From Nitrososphaeraceae archaeon (GTDB taxonomy: Archaea; Thermoproteota; Nitrososphaeria; Nitrososphaerales; Nitrososphaeraceae), in assembly GCA_035250975.1 (NCBI GenBank), contig DATFEP010000021.1, positions 1 to 20,339 of the forward strand: 20,339 nt of DNA, read 5' to 3'. The notes beneath the pieces are model-generated. The model was not told the origin of the DNA. It was given only the letters and a program-made list of their open reading frames with translations, and ran no database searches. This document shows positions 6,273-20,199 of the stretch, in pieces. The stretch's first letter is position 1. Every line of letters starts with the position of its first letter. Made by a program: the position numbers and the translations under genes.

Positions 6273-6294
6273 TATATCTATTGTATATCTATTG
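6273..6294. repeat. Perfect 11-bp tandem duplication (TATATCTATTG x2) overlapping the rhodanese TTG start
   Basis: 6273-6283 is identical to 6284-6294. Confidence 0.8.
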
Positions 6295-7092
6295 ACATTA
6301 TTAATTTCTACACAAAAATTAGATGAATTAATTCAAAAAAAGGATAAAAAGTTAAGGATAATCGATACTAGGTCTTTTGGTGAATATGTTTTGGGACATA
6401 TTCCAGGTTCTATAAACACAGAATTAATGCAATTTCATTGGAGTGATACAACAAAAAATGGCATTAAACAGTTCAATAAACAGAATACCAAGTTATTTTC
6501 TAATTTTGGGATAAAAAAGAATACTTTTCTTGTTTTTTATGAAAACATTTCTGGGCCTTCAGCTGGAAGAGGAGTCTGGCTTTCATTATATTTTTCACAT
6601 AAGAAAGTCGCTATGTTAGACGGAGGATTTGATAAATGGAGAGTTGAAAATAGAGTAATCGACACAGAAAGTGAGAAATTTCAACATAGACGATTTGAAG
6701 GTAAACCTAATTCGTCTATACTGGCGGATTTAAATTTTATGAAGAAAGTGATTAAAAAGAAGAAAGATTTTCAGATTATTGATGTACGTACTTCTGATGA
6801 ATTTTCAGGACAACAGGTTAGAGCATGCAGGAGAGGACATATACCTTTGTCTCGGAATATTGACTGGAATACAAATGTTAAGGATGGAAGATTTAAGTCG
6901 TTAAATGAACTAAAAAAAATATACTCAGAACTTCCAACTGACAAAGAAACAGTTACATATTGTCAGGGTGGATATAGAGCGGCAAATACATTTGTTATAT
7001 TAAGCGAACTTGGGTTTAAAAAGGCGAAATTATATCTTGGATCATGGAATGAATGGGGGAACGATATGAGTCTACCAATTGAAAATAATTGA
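6292..7092 (+). CDS. Two-domain rhodanese / thiosulfate sulfurtransferase
   Basis: GHIPGS, LDGG, GHIP, active-site loop YCQGGYRA and C-terminal YLGSWNEW. Confidence 0.93.
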   Translation: MTLLISTQKLDELIQKKDKKLRIIDTRSFGEYVLGHIPGSINTELMQFHWSDTTKNGIKQFNKQNTKLFSNFGIKKNTFLVFYENISGPSAGRGVWLSLYFSHKKVAMLDGGFDKWRVENRVIDTESEKFQHRRFEGKPNSSILADLNFMKKVIKKKKDFQIIDVRTSDEFSGQQVRACRRGHIPLSRNIDWNTNVKDGRFKSLNELKKIYSELPTDKETVTYCQGGYRAANTFVILSELGFKKAKLYLGSWNEWGNDMSLPIENN

Positions 7093-7247: not shown

Positions 7248-8068
7248 TTGATCTGAGACGACAAGGAAGATTGAGACAACTAGTGACATTAACGAAATCA
7301 GGTTTTCTAGAAGCAATAGAAAATTAATCGTAAGAGACTTAAACGCAGCATTGTATAAAAAACAAACTTTAAAAAAAATGAATCTAGACGTGACGGAAAA
7401 AAAGTAACGGCATTTATTGGTCCATCCGGATGTTCTAAAACGACATTAATAAGGTGTCTTAATAGAATGCATGAAATGACGCCAGGTGCTTATGTAAATG
7501 GTGAAGTAAACCTAGAAAATATTAATATTTACGTCCCAAAAGTAAATCCGGTTATCATAAAAAGAAAAATAGGAATGGTATTTCAAAAACCCAATCCTTT
7601 TGCTACGATGAGTATTTTCGACAATGTGGCAGCAGGCTTGAAACTAAATGAGGTAAGAGATAAGAAGTTGATAGAACAGATAGTAAAAGAAAGTCTTGAA
7701 AATGCTGCATTATGGAAGGAGGTCAAAAATGAATTAAATAAACCTGGAATGAGTTTGTCAGGAGGTCAACAACAAAGACTTTGTATTGCACGAGCTCTAG
7801 CCATGCATCCTGAAGTATTACTAATGGACGAACCTACTTCTGCATTAGATCCCATAGCATCATCTAAGATAGAAGATTTGTTCATTATCTAAAAAAATAT
7901 TTGACCGTAATAATAGTTACACATAATATGCAACAGGCTGCAAGGATATCAGATTAAACTGGTTTTATGTACTTCGGAGAATTGATCGAATTTGGAGAAA
8001 CAAAAGAAATTTTCGAAAACCCTAGTAAAGAATTCACTGAAAGATATATCTCTGGAAAATTTGGATAG
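7248..8068 (+). pseudogene. pstB: Phosphate ABC transporter ATPase PstB pseudogene
   Basis: Reconstruction: ...KLIVRDLNA...LDVTEKK / frameshift in A7 at 7397-7403 / [24 protein letters not shown]...[15 protein letters not shown]...[11 protein letters not shown]...IEDLFI / frameshift near 7887 / [22 protein letters not shown](TAA 7955-7957)[13 protein letters not shown]...ERYISGKFG* (TAG 8066-8068). Walker A carries G->S. The 5' boundary is approximate. Confidence 0.93.
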
Positions 8069-8933: not shown

Positions 8934-9398
8934 ATGGAAAATATTAACAATAAGTTAGTGATAAGGGAATTAGAGGAAACTCACCTTGGAAAAGATTTCC
9001 TAGACACTCTTTCAAATTTGGGGGATGTTAGAAAATTAAAAAACGATCATAAACACATCTTAAAAATTTTTAAAAATATAAAAGAAAAATCAAATTCAAG
9101 AATTTTTGTAGCATTAATTGATAATAAAATAGTAGGAGTAATTACGACAATTATTGAATACAAGTTTATTCATAATGGTGGAAAAGTCTGCCACATTGAA
9201 GATGTTGTGACAAGAAAAGGATATGAAAAATTAGGTATTGGGTCCAGTCTTATAAGACAGGCTATAGATTTTTCCACCAAAGAAGATTGTTATAAGGTAG
9301 TACTAAATTGCTCCGACAAAAATATCCTATTTTATGAAAAAAATGGATTTCATAAACATGAGATCGAAATGAGATTCGACATCAACAAGAAAGGTTAA
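8934..9398 (+). CDS. GNAT acetyltransferase, glucosamine-6-phosphate N-acetyltransferase (GNA1-like)
   Basis: IEYKFIHNGGKVCHIEDVV, CYKVVLNC and FYEKNGF match the GNA1 family pattern. Confidence 0.85.
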   Translation: MENINNKLVIRELEETHLGKDFLDTLSNLGDVRKLKNDHKHILKIFKNIKEKSNSRIFVALIDNKIVGVITTIIEYKFIHNGGKVCHIEDVVTRKGYEKLGIGSSLIRQAIDFSTKEDCYKVVLNCSDKNILFYEKNGFHKHEIEMRFDINKKG

Positions 9399-9429: not shown

Positions 9430-10225
9430 GCATTGTTTTAATTATCTAGAGTTTGAAATAACTAAAAGGATAACATTTTTGTTTATAATTTACAATACTG
9501 AAATTCGAAATTCTAATAAATCCCGTACGTAGGATACCACAATTAAGAATTTCCAAGACATATCTTTGCAATTTTGCTGTGTGAATATTCCACCAATATA
9601 GTGAAAGTTAATTAGTTGATTTTGTTGATTCCTTAATTTACCAATAATGCAATACACAAGTTGTCTGACAAAATTGTGAAGATGATTTGTTGAAATTAAA
9701 ACAACCTCTTTTTGAACTATGTAGATTGCTCTTTTTATAGACACATTGACAAATAGGATTAAATTCACAGAACACATTAAATTCAATATGATCGTACTTT
9801 ATAAATAGAAAATAGATAAAAATGAAAAAACATAATAGGAATCCCTACTTTGTGATTAATTTAATAAGTCTACTCAAGTAATTAATGAATGAAGAATTTT
9901 GTCCTTAAGAGAACAAATGGGATTTGCTTCAAAATAGGCTAAATTAATAAAACTTGAAGGTCATCCGACTTTTATTGAATTTAGTTTCTATTATGAAGAA
10001 AAGGTCCTTTTAATAGCTGCAACTGTTTCTTTGACAAAAATATTGCAGGTTGTTTGAGTTTAAAAAAGTATAAACATATATTCCATTGAATCTATACAAA
10101 CAAATTGCATAAGGTTTATAAAGAAAATTATTTTTTGTTGGTAACACCATTACAGACTATATTTAGCAAAATATCAGACTAGTGAGGAAGTAATATTAAT
10201 ACGTCCTTTGTTTGTTTTTTATAAT

Positions 10226-11017
10226 ATGTCAAATACACCTATCATGGTTTTTGATTCTGGAATAGGTTCTATGTCTATAATCAAGGAACTAAGAATGGAA
10301 TTACCAAATGAAAATATATTATATTTCGCAGATAGAGCAAATTTTCCATATGGAAACAAGTCACATAAAAGACTTTTAGAAATTATGAAGAATACTATTC
10401 AATACTTGGAGAGATTCAAACCAAAGATAATAATAATAGCTTCCAATACCCCTTCACTTCAGATTTTAGATGAAATTAAAGATATAGTGAATGTTCCTTT
10501 ACTAGGTGTGAGACCTCCACTAAGAGAATCAGTAAAGCTAACAAAAAATAATCACATCGGAATAATGGCAACAGAATCCGCTATCAATAGTAAGGAGATA
10601 GATAAACAAATAAACGATGAAATTCCTCAAAAGATATTTGTTAATAAGTATAACGCATCGCCCTTAATAGCCTTGATTGAAAATGGAGATTTTATCAAAA
10701 GCAGAAAGAAGATCAGAAAACAAATTCATAGAATTCTAGGGAACATTGAAGATATAGATGTTATAACATTATCAAGTACGCATCTTCCTTTTATCTTGGA
10801 TCAATTATCTGAAGAGTTCCCATCTGTTAAATTTATCGATTCTGCAAAAACGACAGCAAAAAATGTAAAACAAATTTTGACAGACAACGGATTGCGTAAC
10901 AAAAATAACACTGGAAGGATGAGAATTCTTGTATCGGATGGAAAAAATGAATTTCAGGAAATGTTAAGATATTTGGGTATAAAGGAAAATGTACAAGAAG
11001 TTTTTTGGTCAATTTAG
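10226..11017 (+). CDS. murI: Glutamate racemase (MurI) homolog with both catalytic Cys replaced by Ser
   Basis: VFDSGIG, YFAD..NFPYG, IASNT (canonical IACNT) and LSSTH (canonical LGCTH). ATG 10226 is preferred over TTG 10208 because an AT box lies at 10191-10200. Confidence 0.85.
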   Translation: MSNTPIMVFDSGIGSMSIIKELRMELPNENILYFADRANFPYGNKSHKRLLEIMKNTIQYLERFKPKIIIIASNTPSLQILDEIKDIVNVPLLGVRPPLRESVKLTKNNHIGIMATESAINSKEIDKQINDEIPQKIFVNKYNASPLIALIENGDFIKSRKKIRKQIHRILGNIEDIDVITLSSTHLPFILDQLSEEFPSVKFIDSAKTTAKNVKQILTDNGLRNKNNTGRMRILVSDGKNEFQEMLRYLGIKENVQEVFWSI

Positions 11018-11087
11018 GTAATAGTCAACGAACAAAATATATAATATAAAATTAATCAAATTAGGCAAACCTAATGTGTATTAATTA

Positions 11088-13208
11088 ATGATTAGGAAAA
11101 TAAGACTCGGCATAGACGTTGGAGGAACTTTCACTAAAGCTGTTGCTATTGATATTTTAACGGGAGAGTTATTGGGTAAAATGACGGTTCCCACTACACA
11201 TAATGCTGATAATGGCGTAGCGGAAGGTATTGTCTTAGCACTTAAAAATTTAATGGAAACATATAGCATACAAAAATCTGAAATAGAATTAATTTCACAT
11301 AGTACTACTCAGGCAGTTAATGCGCTTCTTGAAGGAGACACTGCCAAAGTTGGGATTATTGGGATGGGGGTAGGCCTAGAAAAGTCTAACGTTGTCAAGA
11401 GGACTAATATAAAAAATATTGAATTATCTTCAAATAAATATCTGCATACATGTTTTAGATTTTTAGATACATCAAAATATTTGGAAAAAGAAGAAGTGGA
11501 AGAAATAATATCATCGCTAAAAAACGAAGGTGCGGAGGTTTTGGTAGTCAGTGAAGCGTATGGTGTGGATGATCCTAGCAACGAACAATACGTGATGTCG
11601 TATTCGGATTTTCCTATAACTGGAGGTCATGAGCTTACTGGAATTTATGGTCTTGAGATTAGAACTTTGACTGCTGCGATAAACGCAGGCATAATGCCAA
11701 AGTCAATAAGTACGGCAAGATATGTCGAGTCTGCGGTAAGGAACGAGAATATAATTTGTCCTATCATGATAATGAAGGGGGACGGAGGAGTGACAGACAT
11801 CGAAACTTTTAAAAACAAACCTATTTTGACAATACTATCAGGACCTGCGGCAAGTGTCGCGGGAGCATTATTACACTCTCATATTTTGCGTGGAGTATTC
11901 ATTGAAGTTGGAGGAACGTCAACTAATATCTCGATTATAAAAAATGGAAAACCTGAAATTCGATATGTTACCATAATGGATCATCCGACTTGTATTCGTT
12001 CGGTGGATGTCAGAGTTGCAGGAGTAGCAGGAGGTTCATTAATAAGAATTTCAGGCAAAAAAATTATTGATGTAGGTCCTAGGTCAGCTCATATTGCTGG
12101 TTTGAGGTATTCCTGTTTTGTCGATCCCACAGAACTTGATAACTCAAGGTTAATAACTTTTAAACCTAGTGAAAATGATCCAGATAACTATATTTGTATA
12201 GAAACAGAGTCAAAAAAATTGATAGCAATAACCAATACCTGTGCAGCAAATGCGCTAGGATTGATAAAGGAAGGAGATTATGCATCAGGAAATAAGGACG
12301 CAGCTAAAAAGGCACTAAACCTTTTGGCAAAAAAAATAGGAGTGAGTAACTACAACGAAGCGGCACAAATAGTATTAGATTTTTCTATTAAAAAAATTCA
12401 AAGGATAATTGAACCGATGATTAAGGAATATCAGATAGAAACAGATCAGATGTTCCTAATCGGGGGAGGCGGCGGAGCCTCTGCTTTGGTTCCGTATATG
12501 GCAAAGAAGCTAAAATATCAGTTCGAATTAGCTCAAAATGCGGAGGTTATATCATCTATAGGAGTGGCTGCAGCAATGATATATGAGGAAATGGAAAAAA
12601 CCATAAATCAGCCGAAACCCGAAGACGTTTCATTATTAATTGACGAAATTAAAAAAAGAGCCCTCGAAAGAGGAGCAGCACCAGAATCAATTTCAATCCA
12701 AACTGAATATATCAATGAGCGTTCATTATTAAGAGCAACAGCATCAGGAAACGTTGAGTTAGATATCGGAAAAAGTAACAAAAGAGAACTGAATTTTGCA
12801 GAAGTAGAGAATATTGCAATAAAGGTTCTAGGAAGTAACGAAGTGAAACAAATTCTGAATATGAAAAATTATTATGGATTTACCTGCGAAATAATAAAGA
12901 AGAATTTTTTTGTCAAAGTAAGGAGGACCCCGATTGTAATTTTAGATAAACTAGGCAGAATAAGATTAATGCTAGAAAATGCAGAAATAATTAATGGAAC
13001 GAGAGATTTAAAAAGCAATATAGGATCATTAGTATATAAATTTAGTAACAAAAATAAAGACGACTTAGCCCCACAAATCCATATTTTGGATGATGTAAAG
13101 ATTATAGATTTTTCAAGTTTAAGCTCTCCTGAACATCTAATCGAGGCCATAAAAAAAGAATTCGATAAATTAACTGTCGAAGCCGTAACTATTATTATAA
13201 AAAAATAG
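11088..13208 (+). CDS. Hydantoinase A / 5-oxoprolinase family ATP-binding protein with C-terminal extension
   Basis: GIDVGGTFT, HSTT.A.NALLE, ILSGPAAS, EVGGTST and GGGGG motifs. Confidence 0.88.
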   Translation: MIRKIRLGIDVGGTFTKAVAIDILTGELLGKMTVPTTHNADNGVAEGIVLALKNLMETYSIQKSEIELISHSTTQAVNALLEGDTAKVGIIGMGVGLEKSNVVKRTNIKNIELSSNKYLHTCFRFLDTSKYLEKEEVEEIISSLKNEGAEVLVVSEAYGVDDPSNEQYVMSYSDFPITGGHELTGIYGLEIRTLTAAINAGIMPKSISTARYVESAVRNENIICPIMIMKGDGGVTDIETFKNKPILTILSGPAASVAGALLHSHILRGVFIEVGGTSTNISIIKNGKPEIRYVTIMDHPTCIRSVDVRVAGVAGGSLIRISGKKIIDVGPRSAHIAGLRYSCFVDPTELDNSRLITFKPSENDPDNYICIETESKKLIAITNTCAANALGLIKEGDYASGNKDAAKKALNLLAKKIGVSNYNEAAQIVLDFSIKKIQRIIEPMIKEYQIETDQMFLIGGGGGASALVPYMAKKLKYQFELAQNAEVISSIGVAAAMIYEEMEKTINQPKPEDVSLLIDEIKKRALERGAAPESISIQTEYINERSLLRATASGNVELDIGKSNKRELNFAEVENIAIKVLGSNEVKQILNMKNYYGFTCEIIKKNFFVKVRRTPIVILDKLGRIRLMLENAEIINGTRDLKSNIGSLVYKFSNKNKDDLAPQIHILDDVKIIDFSSLSSPEHLIEAIKKEFDKLTVEAVTIIIKK

Positions 13209-13536: not shown

Positions 13537-14430
13537 TTGTTAAGGGATAGTGTGGTTATCGCAGGGCCAGCATCAGAACAGTTAGCATCTAATATTGCAA
13601 AAAGATTAAACATAAAAGTCATAAAACCTGAGCTCATGATATTTGCAGACGGGGAAAGTAAAATAAAGATAGAATCTGTAGAGAATAAACAATGCATAAT
13701 TATTCAATCTCTTTATCCCCCTATCGACAGGCACATAATCCAATTATTAATGATGATCCAAAAGTGTAGAAAAGACAAAGCATTAAAAACTATTGTAGTG
13801 ATTCCATACATGGCTTACGCAAGACAGGATAAAGCATTTCTGGAGGGTGAAGTGATAAGCATATCAATCTTGGCAGAAATTATAGAATATTTTGGAGTTA
13901 GTAGAGTAATAACGGTCGATATTCATAGTGAATCATCGTTATCTTATTTTGGAAATATTATCAAAAACATTTCGGCAATTCCAATATTAGCAGAATACGC
14001 TCTGCAGAACATATTTCTTAATAATGCCATAATTATTTCTCCGGATTTTGGTGGATTAAAAAGAGCACAAAAATTCGGGCAAATAATACAAAGAGAAGTA
14101 ACTTTTCTAAAGAAAACACGTGACAGACTAACAGGAATAGTCTCGATTGAGGATGTATTGGATTTTAATGTAAAAGATAAAGACGTAATTTTGGTTGATG
14201 ATATGATTAGCACAGGTAATAGCATAATAAAGGCTTGCGAAGTGCTAAGAAATAATGGAGCTGAAAGCATTTTTGTAATTTGTTCTCATGCATTACTGCT
14301 TGATAAAGCGTTAGACAAAATAATACGAGCTGGCGCAACAGAGATAATCTCTACAAATTCCATTCCCAACAGTTGTTCCAAGGTTGATCTGTCGAAAATT
14401 ATATCTGAAGTAATTAGTGAGAATAGCTAA
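13537..14430 (+). CDS. prs: Ribose-phosphate pyrophosphokinase
   Basis: FADGE, PYMAYARQDK, VDIH, SPDFGG and VDDMISTG PRPP-binding motif. Confidence 0.95.
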   Translation: MLRDSVVIAGPASEQLASNIAKRLNIKVIKPELMIFADGESKIKIESVENKQCIIIQSLYPPIDRHIIQLLMMIQKCRKDKALKTIVVIPYMAYARQDKAFLEGEVISISILAEIIEYFGVSRVITVDIHSESSLSYFGNIIKNISAIPILAEYALQNIFLNNAIIISPDFGGLKRAQKFGQIIQREVTFLKKTRDRLTGIVSIEDVLDFNVKDKDVILVDDMISTGNSIIKACEVLRNNGAESIFVICSHALLLDKALDKIIRAGATEIISTNSIPNSCSKVDLSKIISEVISENS

Positions 14431-14476: not shown

Positions 14477-15397
14477 ATGACTGACATGAAACTTGTTTTT
14501 TTAGGTACGTCTGCAGCGATCCCTACGTTGCAACGTGGACTATCATCCCTAGCTATCGTTAGAGGAAACGAGATTTTAATTTTCGATGCCGGAGAAGGAA
14601 TGCAAACAAGATTTATTGAATCAAAGATTGGGATGAATAAGAAAATGAAGATTTTCATAACTCATATACATGGTGATCATTGTGTAGGATTGCTAGGTTT
14701 ACTGCAAACTCTTTCTTTAATGGGAAGGAACAAGCCTATAGAAATTTTTGGAGAACCAACGATCGGAGAATTTTTAAAACAAAATATAAGAATAATTAAT
14801 TTCAAATTAAGTTACGATGTTATTATTCATAAAATATCGGGAGAGGGAATAGTAATCAGTGAAAAAGATTATAAAATTACCAGTTGTTTTGCGGATCATT
14901 CGAAGTTAGCTTATTCTTTTTGTCTCGAAGAATTTGATAGGCCTGGAATTTTTCATTTAGATGCGGTAAAACGTTTGGGGATTCCAGAGGGAAAGATTTA
15001 TAGTGATTTACAACACGGAAAAGATATAAGCTTTAAAGGAGAAAAAATATATTCAAAAGGTATTACAGGGCCACCGCGACCTGGAAGAAAAATAGGAATA
15101 TCAGGAGACACGAGACCTACATTAAAATTGACAAATTTCTTCAAGAATTCAGATGTTTTAATATTTGAAGCGACTTTTTTACACAAGGATATTGAGAAGG
15201 CAAAAGAAAGTTTTCACTCAACTGCTTTCGAAGCTGCTTTGCTGGCGAAGAACTCTAATATTAAAAAACTAATATTAACACATTTTAGTGCAAGATACAA
15301 GGATATCGCTCCGATAGAAAGCGAAGCTAGAAAGATCTTTGAAAATGTATATATTGCAAACGATTTGGATGTTTTTATAGTTCCCTATATAAAATAG
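14477..15397 (+). CDS. rnz: Ribonuclease Z (tRNA 3' endonuclease)
   Basis: FLGTSAAIP, DAGEG, THIHGDH, flexible-arm GP-rich segment, SGDT and THFSARY. Confidence 0.96.
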   Translation: MTDMKLVFLGTSAAIPTLQRGLSSLAIVRGNEILIFDAGEGMQTRFIESKIGMNKKMKIFITHIHGDHCVGLLGLLQTLSLMGRNKPIEIFGEPTIGEFLKQNIRIINFKLSYDVIIHKISGEGIVISEKDYKITSCFADHSKLAYSFCLEEFDRPGIFHLDAVKRLGIPEGKIYSDLQHGKDISFKGEKIYSKGITGPPRPGRKIGISGDTRPTLKLTNFFKNSDVLIFEATFLHKDIEKAKESFHSTAFEAALLAKNSNIKKLILTHFSARYKDIAPIESEARKIFENVYIANDLDVFIVPYIK

Positions 15398-18591: not shown

Positions 18592-20199
18592 ATGGCCAAG
18601 GATCCAGAGAAGACAAATTTAAAAAGTTTAGCTGTGATAAAGAAGATGGGATTTGAACCTAAAAAAATTTGTGCCAATCTATCTGTGCCAGAATTAGTAG
18701 AATTTGCAGTCATACGTAAAGAAGCTAATATGTCCTCAACAGGAGCCTTATCTGTATTTACTGGAAAATTTACTGGAAGATCCCCGGATGATCGATATAT
18801 TGTTGAAGATAATATAACTAAAAAAAATATTAATTGGGGAAAAGTGAATCATCCAATTTCAGAACAGAATTTTGATAAAATATTTGAGCGAATGAAAAAG
18901 TTTGTAAGAAACAAGGAATTATTCTTATTTAATGGATATGTAGGAGCAGATGAAGAGGCAAGGTTTCCTGTAAGTGTAATTACAGATAAAGCATGGCAAT
19001 CTCTTTTCGCTAACCAAATTTTGATAAAATCAAAGCAAAATGAATTAAAAAATTTTTCACCGAAATTGGTTCTCTTTTCTTTAAATGATTTTAAAGGGAT
19101 GCCGAAAAAAGATAAAACTGAGTCAGAAACATTCATTATTATTAACTTAAAAAAGAAGATTGTTTTAATAGGATCCACTTCGTATGCTGGAGAAATAAAA
19201 AAATCGATATTTTCTGTTATGAATTATTTCTTACCTGCAAAAGACATTTTTCCTATGCATTGCTCTGCAAATGTTGGTAAAAATGGAGACACTGCACTAT
19301 TCTTCGGATTATCAGGAACTGGCAAAACAACGTTGTCTGCTGATTCTGATAGATGTTTGATTGGAGATGACGAACATGGATGGTCCGCAGATGGAATATT
19401 CAATTTTGAGGGAGGATGTTATGCAAAATGCATAAACCTGAAAAGGGAAACAGAACCACAGATCTGGAACGCAATAAAATTTGGATCAGTTATGGAAAAT
19501 GTCATTATTTCAAATAATAAAAGGGTACCCGACTTCAGTGACAATTCATTAACGGAAAATACCCGTGTTGTATATCCTTTAGAATTCATACCACGTGCAG
19601 TAATACCTAGTGTAGGTAATCATCCAAATGTGATAATTTTTCTTACTGCTGATGCTTTTGGGGTATTGCCACCCATCGCAAAATTGACAAAAGAAGGAGC
19701 AATGTATCATTTTATGTCTGGCTATACCAGTAAATTAGCCGGTACTGAAAGAGGAATTACAAAACCCAAAGAAACCTTTTCCCAATGCTTTGGTGCACCA
19801 TTCATGCCCCTGCATGCTATGAGATACGCAGAAATGTTAGGACGAAAAATGACCGAGCACAATTCAAGAGTATATTTGATTAATACTGGATGGCATGGGG
19901 GTCCTTATGGGATAGGCAAGAGGATTGATCTTGGATATACGAGAGCAATGGTGACCAATGCCATAAGTGGAGAAATAGATAAATGTTCATTTAAATTACA
20001 TCAAATTTTCAATTTCCAGATTCCAACATCATGTCCGGGTGTACCTGACGAGCTACTTGATCCCAGTCAAACATGGAAAGATAAAAAAGATTACAATATT
20101 GCAGCTAGGAAATTAGCAAGATTATTCACACAAAACTTTGAGAAATTCGGGCGACTATCTAAAGAAATTGTTGATGCTGGTCCAAAACCAGATGTATAA
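18592..20199 (+). CDS. pckA: Phosphoenolpyruvate carboxykinase (ATP)
   Basis: TGRSP, YAGEIKKS, MHCSAN, FGLSGTGKTTLS, LIGDDEHGW and NFEGGCYAK. Confidence 0.98.
   Translation: MAKDPEKTNLKSLAVIKKMGFEPKKICANLSVPELVEFAVIRKEANMSSTGALSVFTGKFTGRSPDDRYIVEDNITKKNINWGKVNHPISEQNFDKIFERMKKFVRNKELFLFNGYVGADEEARFPVSVITDKAWQSLFANQILIKSKQNELKNFSPKLVLFSLNDFKGMPKKDKTESETFIIINLKKKIVLIGSTSYAGEIKKSIFSVMNYFLPAKDIFPMHCSANVGKNGDTALFFGLSGTGKTTLSADSDRCLIGDDEHGWSADGIFNFEGGCYAKCINLKRETEPQIWNAIKFGSVMENVIISNNKRVPDFSDNSLTENTRVVYPLEFIPRAVIPSVGNHPNVIIFLTADAFGVLPPIAKLTKEGAMYHFMSGYTSKLAGTERGITKPKETFSQCFGAPFMPLHAMRYAEMLGRKMTEHNSRVYLINTGWHGGPYGIGKRIDLGYTRAMVTNAISGEIDKCSFKLHQIFNFQIPTSCPGVPDELLDPSQTWKDKKDYNIAARKLARLFTQNFEKFGRLSKEIVDAGPKPDV

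Follow-up and report, generated by a model that had tools for sequence, protein, structure and literature searches.

Can the scaffold of glutamate racemase (MurI) function without either of its two catalytic thiols, and, if so, what does such a protein do? This question is raised by a gene in a Nitrososphaeraceae archaeon (contig DATFEP010000021.1 of GenBank assembly GCA_035250975.1), from which a stretch of 20,339 nucleotides, called the window below, was analysed. MurI, which is also a drug target, is a textbook case of an enzyme that works with two thiols. The gene in question (positions 10226 to 11017, + strand) is an intact open reading frame (ORF) for a 263-amino-acid protein, P0001, which the ORF list, its translation, family profiles, and a structural model identify as a cysteine-free member of the MurI fold with serine at both catalytic positions. 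We find that this Ser/Ser state is a family trait, neither a lesion nor a product of chance, and that the gene is under purifying selection. As a whole, the Ser/Ser proteins are best read as a subfamily of the MurI fold in its own right, ancient and widely distributed, which purifying selection maintains in the four families of ammonia-oxidizing archaea that carry it and which in many bacteria exists as a second copy next to the true peptidoglycan MurI.

Why the loss of both thiols is a matter of consequence can be seen from the known chemistry. According to the racemase passages of PMC8142540, amino-acid racemases that need no cofactor rely on a thiolate/thiol pair (in the enzyme of Bacillus subtilis, Cys74 and Cys185), and cysteine is thought to be favored over serine or threonine since it loses its solvent shell more readily and its pKa is lower. 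The window gene departs from this arrangement with no sign of damage. Its frame runs from an ATG at 10226 to a stop codon at 11015-11017 without an internal stop; a TTG at 10208 is a possible alternative start, yet 263 amino acids is the length of most homologs. Codon 73 is TCC (10442-10444), within an A-S-N-T motif, and codon 184 is AGT (10775-10777), within S-S-T-H, while the motifs DSG (residues 10-12), PYG (41-43), NT (74-75), and TH (185-186) are all present. In phmmer alignments with the solved MurI chains 2jfu, 1zuw, and 2gzm (E values of 1e-30 to 8e-29), Ser73 and Ser184 stand opposite the cysteines of iaCnt and lgCth, at the positions of the cysteine pair that characterizes MurI. Solved glutamate racemases in general match the protein over nearly its full length, with E values of 1e-30 to 1e-15 and 24-30% identity. 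An earlier note on this DNA, made from the letters alone, had described the intact frame, its coordinates, the two serine codons, the retained motifs, the complete lack of cysteine, and the replacement of both catalytic cysteines, and it was correct in each of these respects.

The replacement is not peculiar to one genome. When the query was taken together with its 120 best database matches (54-98% identity), serine occupied both positions in 121/121 proteins; 83 of the 121 are without any cysteine, and the named ones are from Nitrososphaeraceae or Nitrososphaera. Among ammonia-oxidizing archaea (AOA), both positions are serine in 50/50 loci from four families, namely 15 loci of Nitrososphaeraceae (f1, the window included), 28 of Nitrosopumilaceae (f2), five of a family labeled f3, and two of a family labeled f5. 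One of these loci (L025) belongs to a genome marked as unpublished (G132), and without it the count is 49/49. Thus, the similar motifs that the earlier note remembered from other thaumarchaeal homologs are real. A search of 201 Nitrososphaeria genomes detected the gene in 128, each of which belongs to one of the four AOA families. With the window's genome set apart, it is present in 14/14 genomes of f1, 106/114 of f2, 5/5 of f3, and 2/2 of f5 (127/135), and it was found in 0/65 genomes of the remaining Nitrososphaeria families. This AOA-limited distribution agrees with the relevant passages of PMC12363236, in which the gene is said to be prevalent in ammonia oxidizers and virtually absent from other Nitrososphaeria.

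Such breadth leaves almost no room for the possibility that the gene is decaying, or that its serines are an artefact of sequencing or assembly. The ratio of nonsynonymous to synonymous substitution (dN/dS, Nei-Gojobori method) was estimated for 15 pairs. Four of these were saturated at synonymous sites and gave no finite dS; in the remaining 11, the ratio lies between 0.055 and 0.23. Ratios this far below 1, the open frame, homologs of the same length, the same serine codons in 50 AOA loci, and the unbroken counts of 121/121 proteins and 50/50 loci together refute decay and artefact alike. Also, four metatranscriptome libraries from two studies hold contigs of 151-488 nucleotides, mostly 95-99% alike, that lie over 10261-11029 and parts of the neighboring gene, and these near-identical contigs from independent runs keep codon 73 as serine (TCC has become TCA in contig X10). 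Metatranscriptome libraries may carry DNA, and the contigs are no proof of transcription. The suggestion that selection keeps the serine pair in an undamaged gene is therefore supported, and the outcome that would have counted against it, close orthologs with Cys/Cys and relaxed selection, did not appear: close and distant orthologs are Ser/Ser and selection is purifying.

A small variation exists within Nitrososphaeraceae. In three loci of one genus, g2 (L013, L014, and L015), residue 183 is a cysteine encoded by TGC or TGT, just before the invariant Ser184, to give L-C-S-T-H-L. This thiol might represent a partial return of cysteine chemistry, or it might be incidental.

Comparison with more distant relatives separates the Ser/Ser proteins from canonical MurI. 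Searched against 1.84 billion representative proteins, the query had 11,972 matches at E <= 0.001, and it was compared with the best 150 of these. Among the full-length rows of this set, 49 carry A-S-N-T-P and T-L-S-S-T-H-L, and 89 carry A-C-N-T-A and L-G-C-T-H-Y, so that the nearest canonical relatives have cysteine at both positions in 89/89 rows. A maximum-likelihood tree was built from 133 rows by a quick search and rooted at its midpoint; in it, 47 Ser/Ser rows, the window protein among them, form one side of a branch with a support value of 99 in the Shimodaira-Hasegawa-like approximate likelihood ratio test (SH-aLRT). Three groups make up this side: that of the window protein, a Nitrosopumilus-type group, and a group of 18 rows that includes public Mammaliicoccus sciuri and Taylorella proteins. 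The subfamily can be defined by four motifs, D-[SA]-G-x-G-S, A-D-x(4)-P-Y-G, [AG]-S-x-x-P, and [SGAC]-S-T-H-L, together with placement in the Ser/Ser split, and the window protein has both the motifs and the placement. A single Cys/Ser hybrid was seen, the metagenome protein P0229, which reads A-C-N-T-A and then L-A-S-T-H-Y and lies inside the canonical clade beside P0230.

The subfamily extends well into bacteria. When prokaryotes were scanned under the guidance of the motifs, with each species represented by one genome, 553 bacterial stretches were confirmed, and all counts of bacterial loci given here refer to the 80 that were kept, from Halomonadaceae, Cupriavidus, Bradyrhizobium, Brucellaceae, Phyllobacteriaceae, Nocardia, Mammaliicoccus, and others. 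Because the scan pattern held S-S-T-H-L, this bacterial set cannot test Ser184; Ser73 lay outside the pattern, and it is serine in 80/80 loci. The bacterial and archaeal members differ elsewhere in the site. Bacterial loci have D-A-G in 79/80 cases, with loss of Ser11, and S-N-A-P or S-N-V-P in 80/80, with loss of Thr75, whereas archaeal members have D-S-G in 50/50 loci and mostly N-T. These differences suggest that the ligand is perhaps not common to both branches.

Bacterial genomes also provide a view of how the Ser/Ser protein relates to the peptidoglycan enzyme. In 5/5 bacterial genomes tested with the NCBIfam model TIGR00067, a canonical MurI is present beside the Ser/Ser copy. Four of the canonical copies score 182-259 bits and the one in Nocardia scores 111 bits, and the Ser/Ser copies reach 92-123 bits. 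CTH is present in 5/5 canonical copies and ACNT in 4/5, the simple pattern having missed the first motif in the Nocardia copy, while the second copies read A-S-N-[AV]-P and S-S-T-H in 5/5 genomes. The existence of a second copy beside canonical MurI indicates that the peptidoglycan enzyme of bacteria is not the Ser/Ser protein, which is a paralog of it, and the retention of canonical MurI indicates that the two are not redundant in those bacteria. In the window's genome, the Ser/Ser gene is the only TIGR00067 match.

The residues that surround the two serines were compared in the 49 Ser/Ser and 89 Cys/Cys full-length rows. Common to both sets are Phe9, Asp10, Gly12, Gly14, Asp36, Pro41, Tyr42, Gly43, Asn74, Glu152, Asp178, Thr185, and His186, with Asp10 and His186 conserved in 100% of the Ser/Ser rows. 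The D10-S11-G12 motif (10253-10261, + strand, as are all codons given here) holds an aspartate that is present in 49/49 Ser/Ser and 89/89 Cys/Cys rows and that we take to be the helper of the first catalytic residue, as in MurI. The P41-Y42-G43 loop (10346-10354), in which Pro41 and Tyr42 are invariant and Gly43 is 96% conserved in Ser/Ser rows, is presumably part of the ligand cage, as judged from ligand contacts in solved MurI complexes. By codon and alignment, S73-N74-T75 (10442-10450) places Ser73 where the first catalytic cysteine would be, and S183-S184-T185-H186 (10772-10783) places Ser184 where the second would be, with serine also in place of Gly183. Between them lies the conserved active-site glutamate E152 (10679-10681), present in 49/49 Ser/Ser and 88/89 Cys/Cys rows. 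From the helper and cage set of MurI (Asp10, Ser11, Pro-Tyr-Gly, Asn, Thr, Glu152, Thr185, His186, and Thr116/Thr119), the window protein has all but Thr119, and the roles of the single residues in it are assumed here to carry over from MurI.

Other positions set the two kinds of protein apart. Four are switched in Ser/Ser rows (Gly15, Cys73, Gly183, and Cys184, each to Ser), and Ala35, Pro76 (A76P), Pro98, Phe156, Leu187 (Y187L), and Pro206 are conserved in Ser/Ser rows only, as is a two-residue insert after position 156. Conserved in Cys/Cys rows only are Thr119, Lys67, Glu29, and Thr116 (99% versus 65%). Position 119 is threonine in 92% of Cys/Cys rows, alanine in the window protein, and leucine, alanine, or valine across the Ser/Ser rows. 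Its counterpart is the threonine that is proposed to bind substrate in RacX and EcL-DER in the passages of PMC12838360 on those enzymes.

The serine codons carry a further signal. Ser73 is encoded by TCN in 130/130 loci (50 AOA and 80 bacterial), and Ser184 by AGY in 50/50 AOA loci, with AGY in 62/80 and TCN in 18/80 bacterial loci. The TCN and AGY serine codons each lie one base from the cysteine codon TGY, and two steps from each other. Both serine codon families thus occur at position 184 in one clade, with no single-step switch between them that does not leave serine, which argues for selection on serine itself. Several origins from cysteine would be the alternative.

Given these features, the name under which the protein is usually filed deserves scrutiny. 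Archaeal members are labeled 'glutamate racemase' by annotation pipelines, a label carried over, without verification, on the basis of a profile match that is borderline. Against the TIGR00067 'glutamate racemase' equivalog model, the window protein scores 156.9 bits with a cut-off of 146.65, a marginal pass by about 10 bits, and it fails the stricter models NF002035 (136 bits versus 328) and NF002034. Two Cys/Cys proteins that were scanned reach 239 and 256 bits with TIGR00067, whereas of 10 other Ser/Ser proteins, taken from the bacterial branch and the Nitrosopumilaceae-like one, seven do not reach the cut-off (87-122 bits) and three pass (146.7-165 bits). The doubt that the earlier note cast on the label therefore gains support from the marginal score as well as from the second copy in 5/5 bacterial genomes.

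Although the label is weak, the fold is clearly that of MurI. The protein passes the model for the Asp/Glu/hydantoin racemase superfamily, Pfam PF01177, with 49.7 bits (cut-off 31), and reaches only 37 bits with the aspartate-racemase model TIGR00035 (cut-off 93.1). Its matches in the ESM Atlas are 'putative glutamate racemase' clusters only. An AlphaFold2 model made from an alignment of 55 subfamily sequences has a mean predicted local distance difference test score (pLDDT) of 94.4 and a predicted template modeling score (pTM) of 0.90. With this model, the top 44 Foldseek ranks are all MurI, with template modeling (TM) scores of up to 0.90 (2dwu), and aspartate racemases reach only about 0.59. 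Model and Foldseek matches alike give an alpha/beta fold of two domains, between which the active site lies. The protein thus resembles the MurI/RacE enzymes (TIGR00067; 2dwu, 1zuw, 2gzm, and 2jfu) in its two-domain fold, at TM scores of 0.86-0.90, and in the retained DSG, PYG, NT, E152, and TH elements, but it differs in its Ser/Ser pair, in its separate branch of the tree, and in a genome where no peptidoglycan context was found.

On this evidence, a working glutamate racemase, in which two serines do the job of the cysteines and D-glutamate is supplied or used in AOA, is an unlikely description of the protein. The passed TIGR00067 cut-off, the MurI fold, and the retention of nearly all cage and helper residues speak for it, as do the restriction of the gene to four AOA families and the proposal, in part of PMC12363236, that AOA use D-glutamate. 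These points are offset by the absence of both defining cysteines, the loss of Thr119, the many Ser/Ser relatives that score below the cut-off, and the separate canonical MurI kept in all five bacterial genomes. Furthermore, the window's genome (94.6% complete) yielded no match to MurD (TIGR01087) or to the Mur ligase middle domain (Mur_ligase_M, PF08245), although this negative has limited weight because the same kind of search missed the Ser/Ser gene with PF01177 (49.7 bits as a protein) and found it with TIGR00067. A supply of D-glutamate to a Mur-ligase (peptidoglycan) pathway thus finds no counterpart among the matches in that genome.

We would instead place the protein in the MurI branch of PF01177, within a Ser/Ser subfamily, and would not file it as a glutamate racemase because both catalytic cysteines, the defining chemical feature, are absent. 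It is probably still an enzyme that acts on glutamate or a glutamate-like molecule. A glutamate-type ligand is suggested by the helpers that are kept (Asp10, His186, and Glu152) and by most of the cage (Ser11, Pro41-Tyr42-Gly43, Asn74, Thr75, and Thr185), and the strict conservation of both serines, Asp10, His186, and Glu152 under purifying selection makes an enzyme the most likely outcome. In a dead site, alanine, glycine, or threonine would be expected to have crept in; both serines are invariant across about 30-98% identity. Sequence, fold, conservation, selection, and paralogy are shown directly by the data; catalysis, the action of the two serines as bases, and the nature of the substrate are inferences.

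In the mechanism that we favor, the protein would bind glutamate or a glutamate-shaped small molecule, and a proton at the alpha carbon would be moved from two sides, on the first by Ser73, with Asp10 as its activator, and on the opposite face by Ser184, with His186 in that role. The substrate might be glutamate, turned over at a modest rate, or a glutamate-like compound, and the rate, direction, or substrate would be expected to differ from those of canonical MurI. We judge the chance that the protein abstracts and returns a proton with these two pairs to be about even. A bolder proposal is that it may be the first natural cofactor-independent enzyme of the amino-acid racemase/epimerase type to use two serine oxygens (Ser-Asp and Ser-His), or else a hydrolase or cyclase that employs Ser184-His186-Glu152 on a glutamate derivative, and this we regard as possible but doubtful.

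Precedents for the natural loss of a catalytic cysteine exist in the same superfamily. EcL-DER/YgeA (Thr/Cys), MMP0739, and RacX (Ala/Cys) are described in parts of PMC8142540 and PMC12838360 as one-cysteine exceptions with one-directional activity or altered activity or specificity. Each of these enzymes has one cysteine left and belongs to the aspartate-racemase branch, whereas the window protein has none, and the racemase passages of the same two papers contain no example in which both cysteines are replaced.

Several lines of evidence weigh against a two-serine catalyst. In the Lactobacillus enzyme, either of the single changes C73S and C184S reportedly lowers the rate about a thousand-fold. 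Among the one-cysteine enzymes, changing the remaining cysteine to serine abolished the activity of EcL-DER and reduced that of RacX, as given in the passages of PMC12838360 on these proteins. Losses of this kind imply that a double-serine enzyme acting on glutamate could be very slow. Also, the threonine at position 119, typical of Cys/Cys MurI and proposed to bind substrate in RacX, is lost, and the bacterial branch lacks both Ser11 and Thr75, by which the ligand may not be glutamate. Finally, the invariant serine, aspartate, and histidine residues could serve ligand binding alone.

This last point leads to the reading of the protein as a pseudoenzyme, a non-catalytic binder of glutamate or another ligand with a regulatory or sensing role, which we consider quite unlikely. 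The catalytic thiols are gone and the binding cage is kept, and MurI proteins moonlight, independently of catalysis, as inhibitors of DNA gyrase (compare PMC1635304). Nevertheless, the two serines, Asp10, and His186 are invariant over bacterial-archaeal distances, where a mere binder would be expected to allow alanine or glycine. The known moonlighting target is apparently missing as well, since the GyrA family gave no match in the window's genome (94.6% complete), a result of limited weight because such a search missed the Ser/Ser gene with PF01177. Inhibition of gyrase was set aside as a candidate role for want of this target.

Gene context suggests one further reading. After a gap of 70 bp, the Ser/Ser gene is followed on the same strand by a gene (11088-13208) for a 706-amino-acid protein of the hydantoinase/oxoprolinase-A family (Pfam Hydantoinase_A, 3.7e-51; Hydant_A_N, 2.1e-21). 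The two proteins could be partners in acting on 5-oxoproline, hydantoin-5-propionate, or another cyclic derivative of glutamate, in which the alpha proton might be acidic enough for serine bases. Characterized hydantoin racemases use two cysteines. They share the PF01177 fold with the window protein and act on substrates with an acidic alpha proton, a kind that might suit serine bases, but the window protein is far closer to MurI than to any other branch by profiles, PDB matches, and Foldseek. The chemistry is plausible in that a hydantoin racemase of this superfamily is described in part of PMC8142540 as working via an enolate intermediate.

Distribution speaks less favorably for such a partnership. 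The hydantoinase-A gene adjoins the Ser/Ser gene in 9/15 Nitrososphaeraceae loci (43-70% identity of the MurI-like proteins), and RNA-library contigs X8 (11012-11217) and X13 (10978-11134) cross the junction between the two genes, which is a weak hint of a connection. In the other AOA families the two genes adjoin in 0/15 loci, and a hydantoinase-A homolog is present in only 59/201 class genomes (f2 44/114, f3 0/5), versus 128/201 for the Ser/Ser gene. No Hydantoinase_A was found among 81 immediate bacterial neighbors, and no HyuB-type partner was seen within the window. The link of the downstream protein to the Ser/Ser finding is doubtful, having been weakened by its distribution, and a joint role in the metabolism of a cyclic derivative seems very unlikely. 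The hydantoinase-A protein itself is stand-alone, with strong conservation (46-76% identity) in homologs but a patchy presence in AOA, and its N-terminus gives weak MutL/GlmL-type matches.

The remaining neighbors vary with the lineage. Upstream of the Ser/Ser gene in the window is a GNAT acetyltransferase gene (8934-9398, + strand; Pfam Acetyltransf_1, 9.6e-17), which has this position only in L001, L002, L003, and L007, the loci of the window's own genus. One Nitrososphaeraceae genus has a DtxR-type repressor gene upstream. In Nitrosopumilaceae loci L018-L030, the Ser/Ser gene is convergent to two genes for tetrapyrrole (corrin/porphyrin) methylases and divergent from one for a protein of about 213-216 amino acids without a Pfam match, with a UDG-family gene near; a UDG gene also adjoins the Ser/Ser gene in L016 (f5) and L006 (f1).

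Bacterial neighbors, of which the 81 immediate ones were scanned, are mixed. The only family common to unrelated bacterial taxa is that of LysE-type exporters, of which eight genes, from five genera and two families, lie no more than three genes away from the Ser/Ser gene, sometimes with LysR regulators. Their recurrence is a weak hint of an amino-acid-like product. In three Mammaliicoccus species (L031-L033), only 7-18 bp separate the end of an upstream 4HBT-type thioesterase gene from the Ser/Ser gene, and in L031 a LysE-type exporter gene begins 66 bp after it, a layout that looks operon-like. Overall, context was rejected as a guide to function, there being no consistent partner across AOA families and bacteria.

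Elsewhere in the window, a 141-amino-acid ORF (7467-7892, + strand) matches the ABC_tran ATPase profile over positions 39-137 only. An ORF of about 139 amino acids near the Ser/Ser gene in L005 is 75% identical to it, and the window ORF has the look of a short ABC-ATPase-like piece that is conserved, not of a gene broken at random. Also present around the Ser/Ser gene are ordinary housekeeping genes on the + strand, for a double rhodanese (6292-7092), ribose-phosphate pyrophosphokinase (13537-14430), a metallo-beta-lactamase-fold protein that is RNase Z-like (14477-15397), and ATP-dependent phosphoenolpyruvate carboxykinase (18592-20199).

The literature that was searched, with most subscription journals outside its range, yielded no paper that notes the Ser/Ser state or characterizes the protein. 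The earlier note had considered that the clade might already be known as an ordinary glutamate racemase, and no such description was encountered there. The nearest statement is in PMC12363236, a 2025 study, parts of which propose that AOA use D-glutamate and feed it into deep-sea carbon and nitrogen cycling, a claim that is built on the racemase label, and state that the Nitrosopumilus maritimus protein has the necessary catalytic sites. The Nitrosopumilaceae loci read here are Ser/Ser in 28/28 cases, with N. maritimus not assigned to any one of them.

There are several reasons why the function of these proteins matters. A natural and strongly conserved form of MurI without either thiol tests whether the scaffold really needs thiols at all. 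It represents a large uncharacterized paralog family, with 553 bacterial stretches and presence in 127/135 other genomes of the four AOA families. If the Ser/Ser protein does not racemize glutamate, the claim of D-glutamate cycling by these archaea loses its gene, and if it does, the enzymology is new. Should the reading as a two-serine catalyst or as a new kind of enzyme be true, then every ammonia-oxidizing archaeon and many bacteria would carry an unrecognized reaction, and the 'AOA glutamate racemase' would have been mis-assigned.

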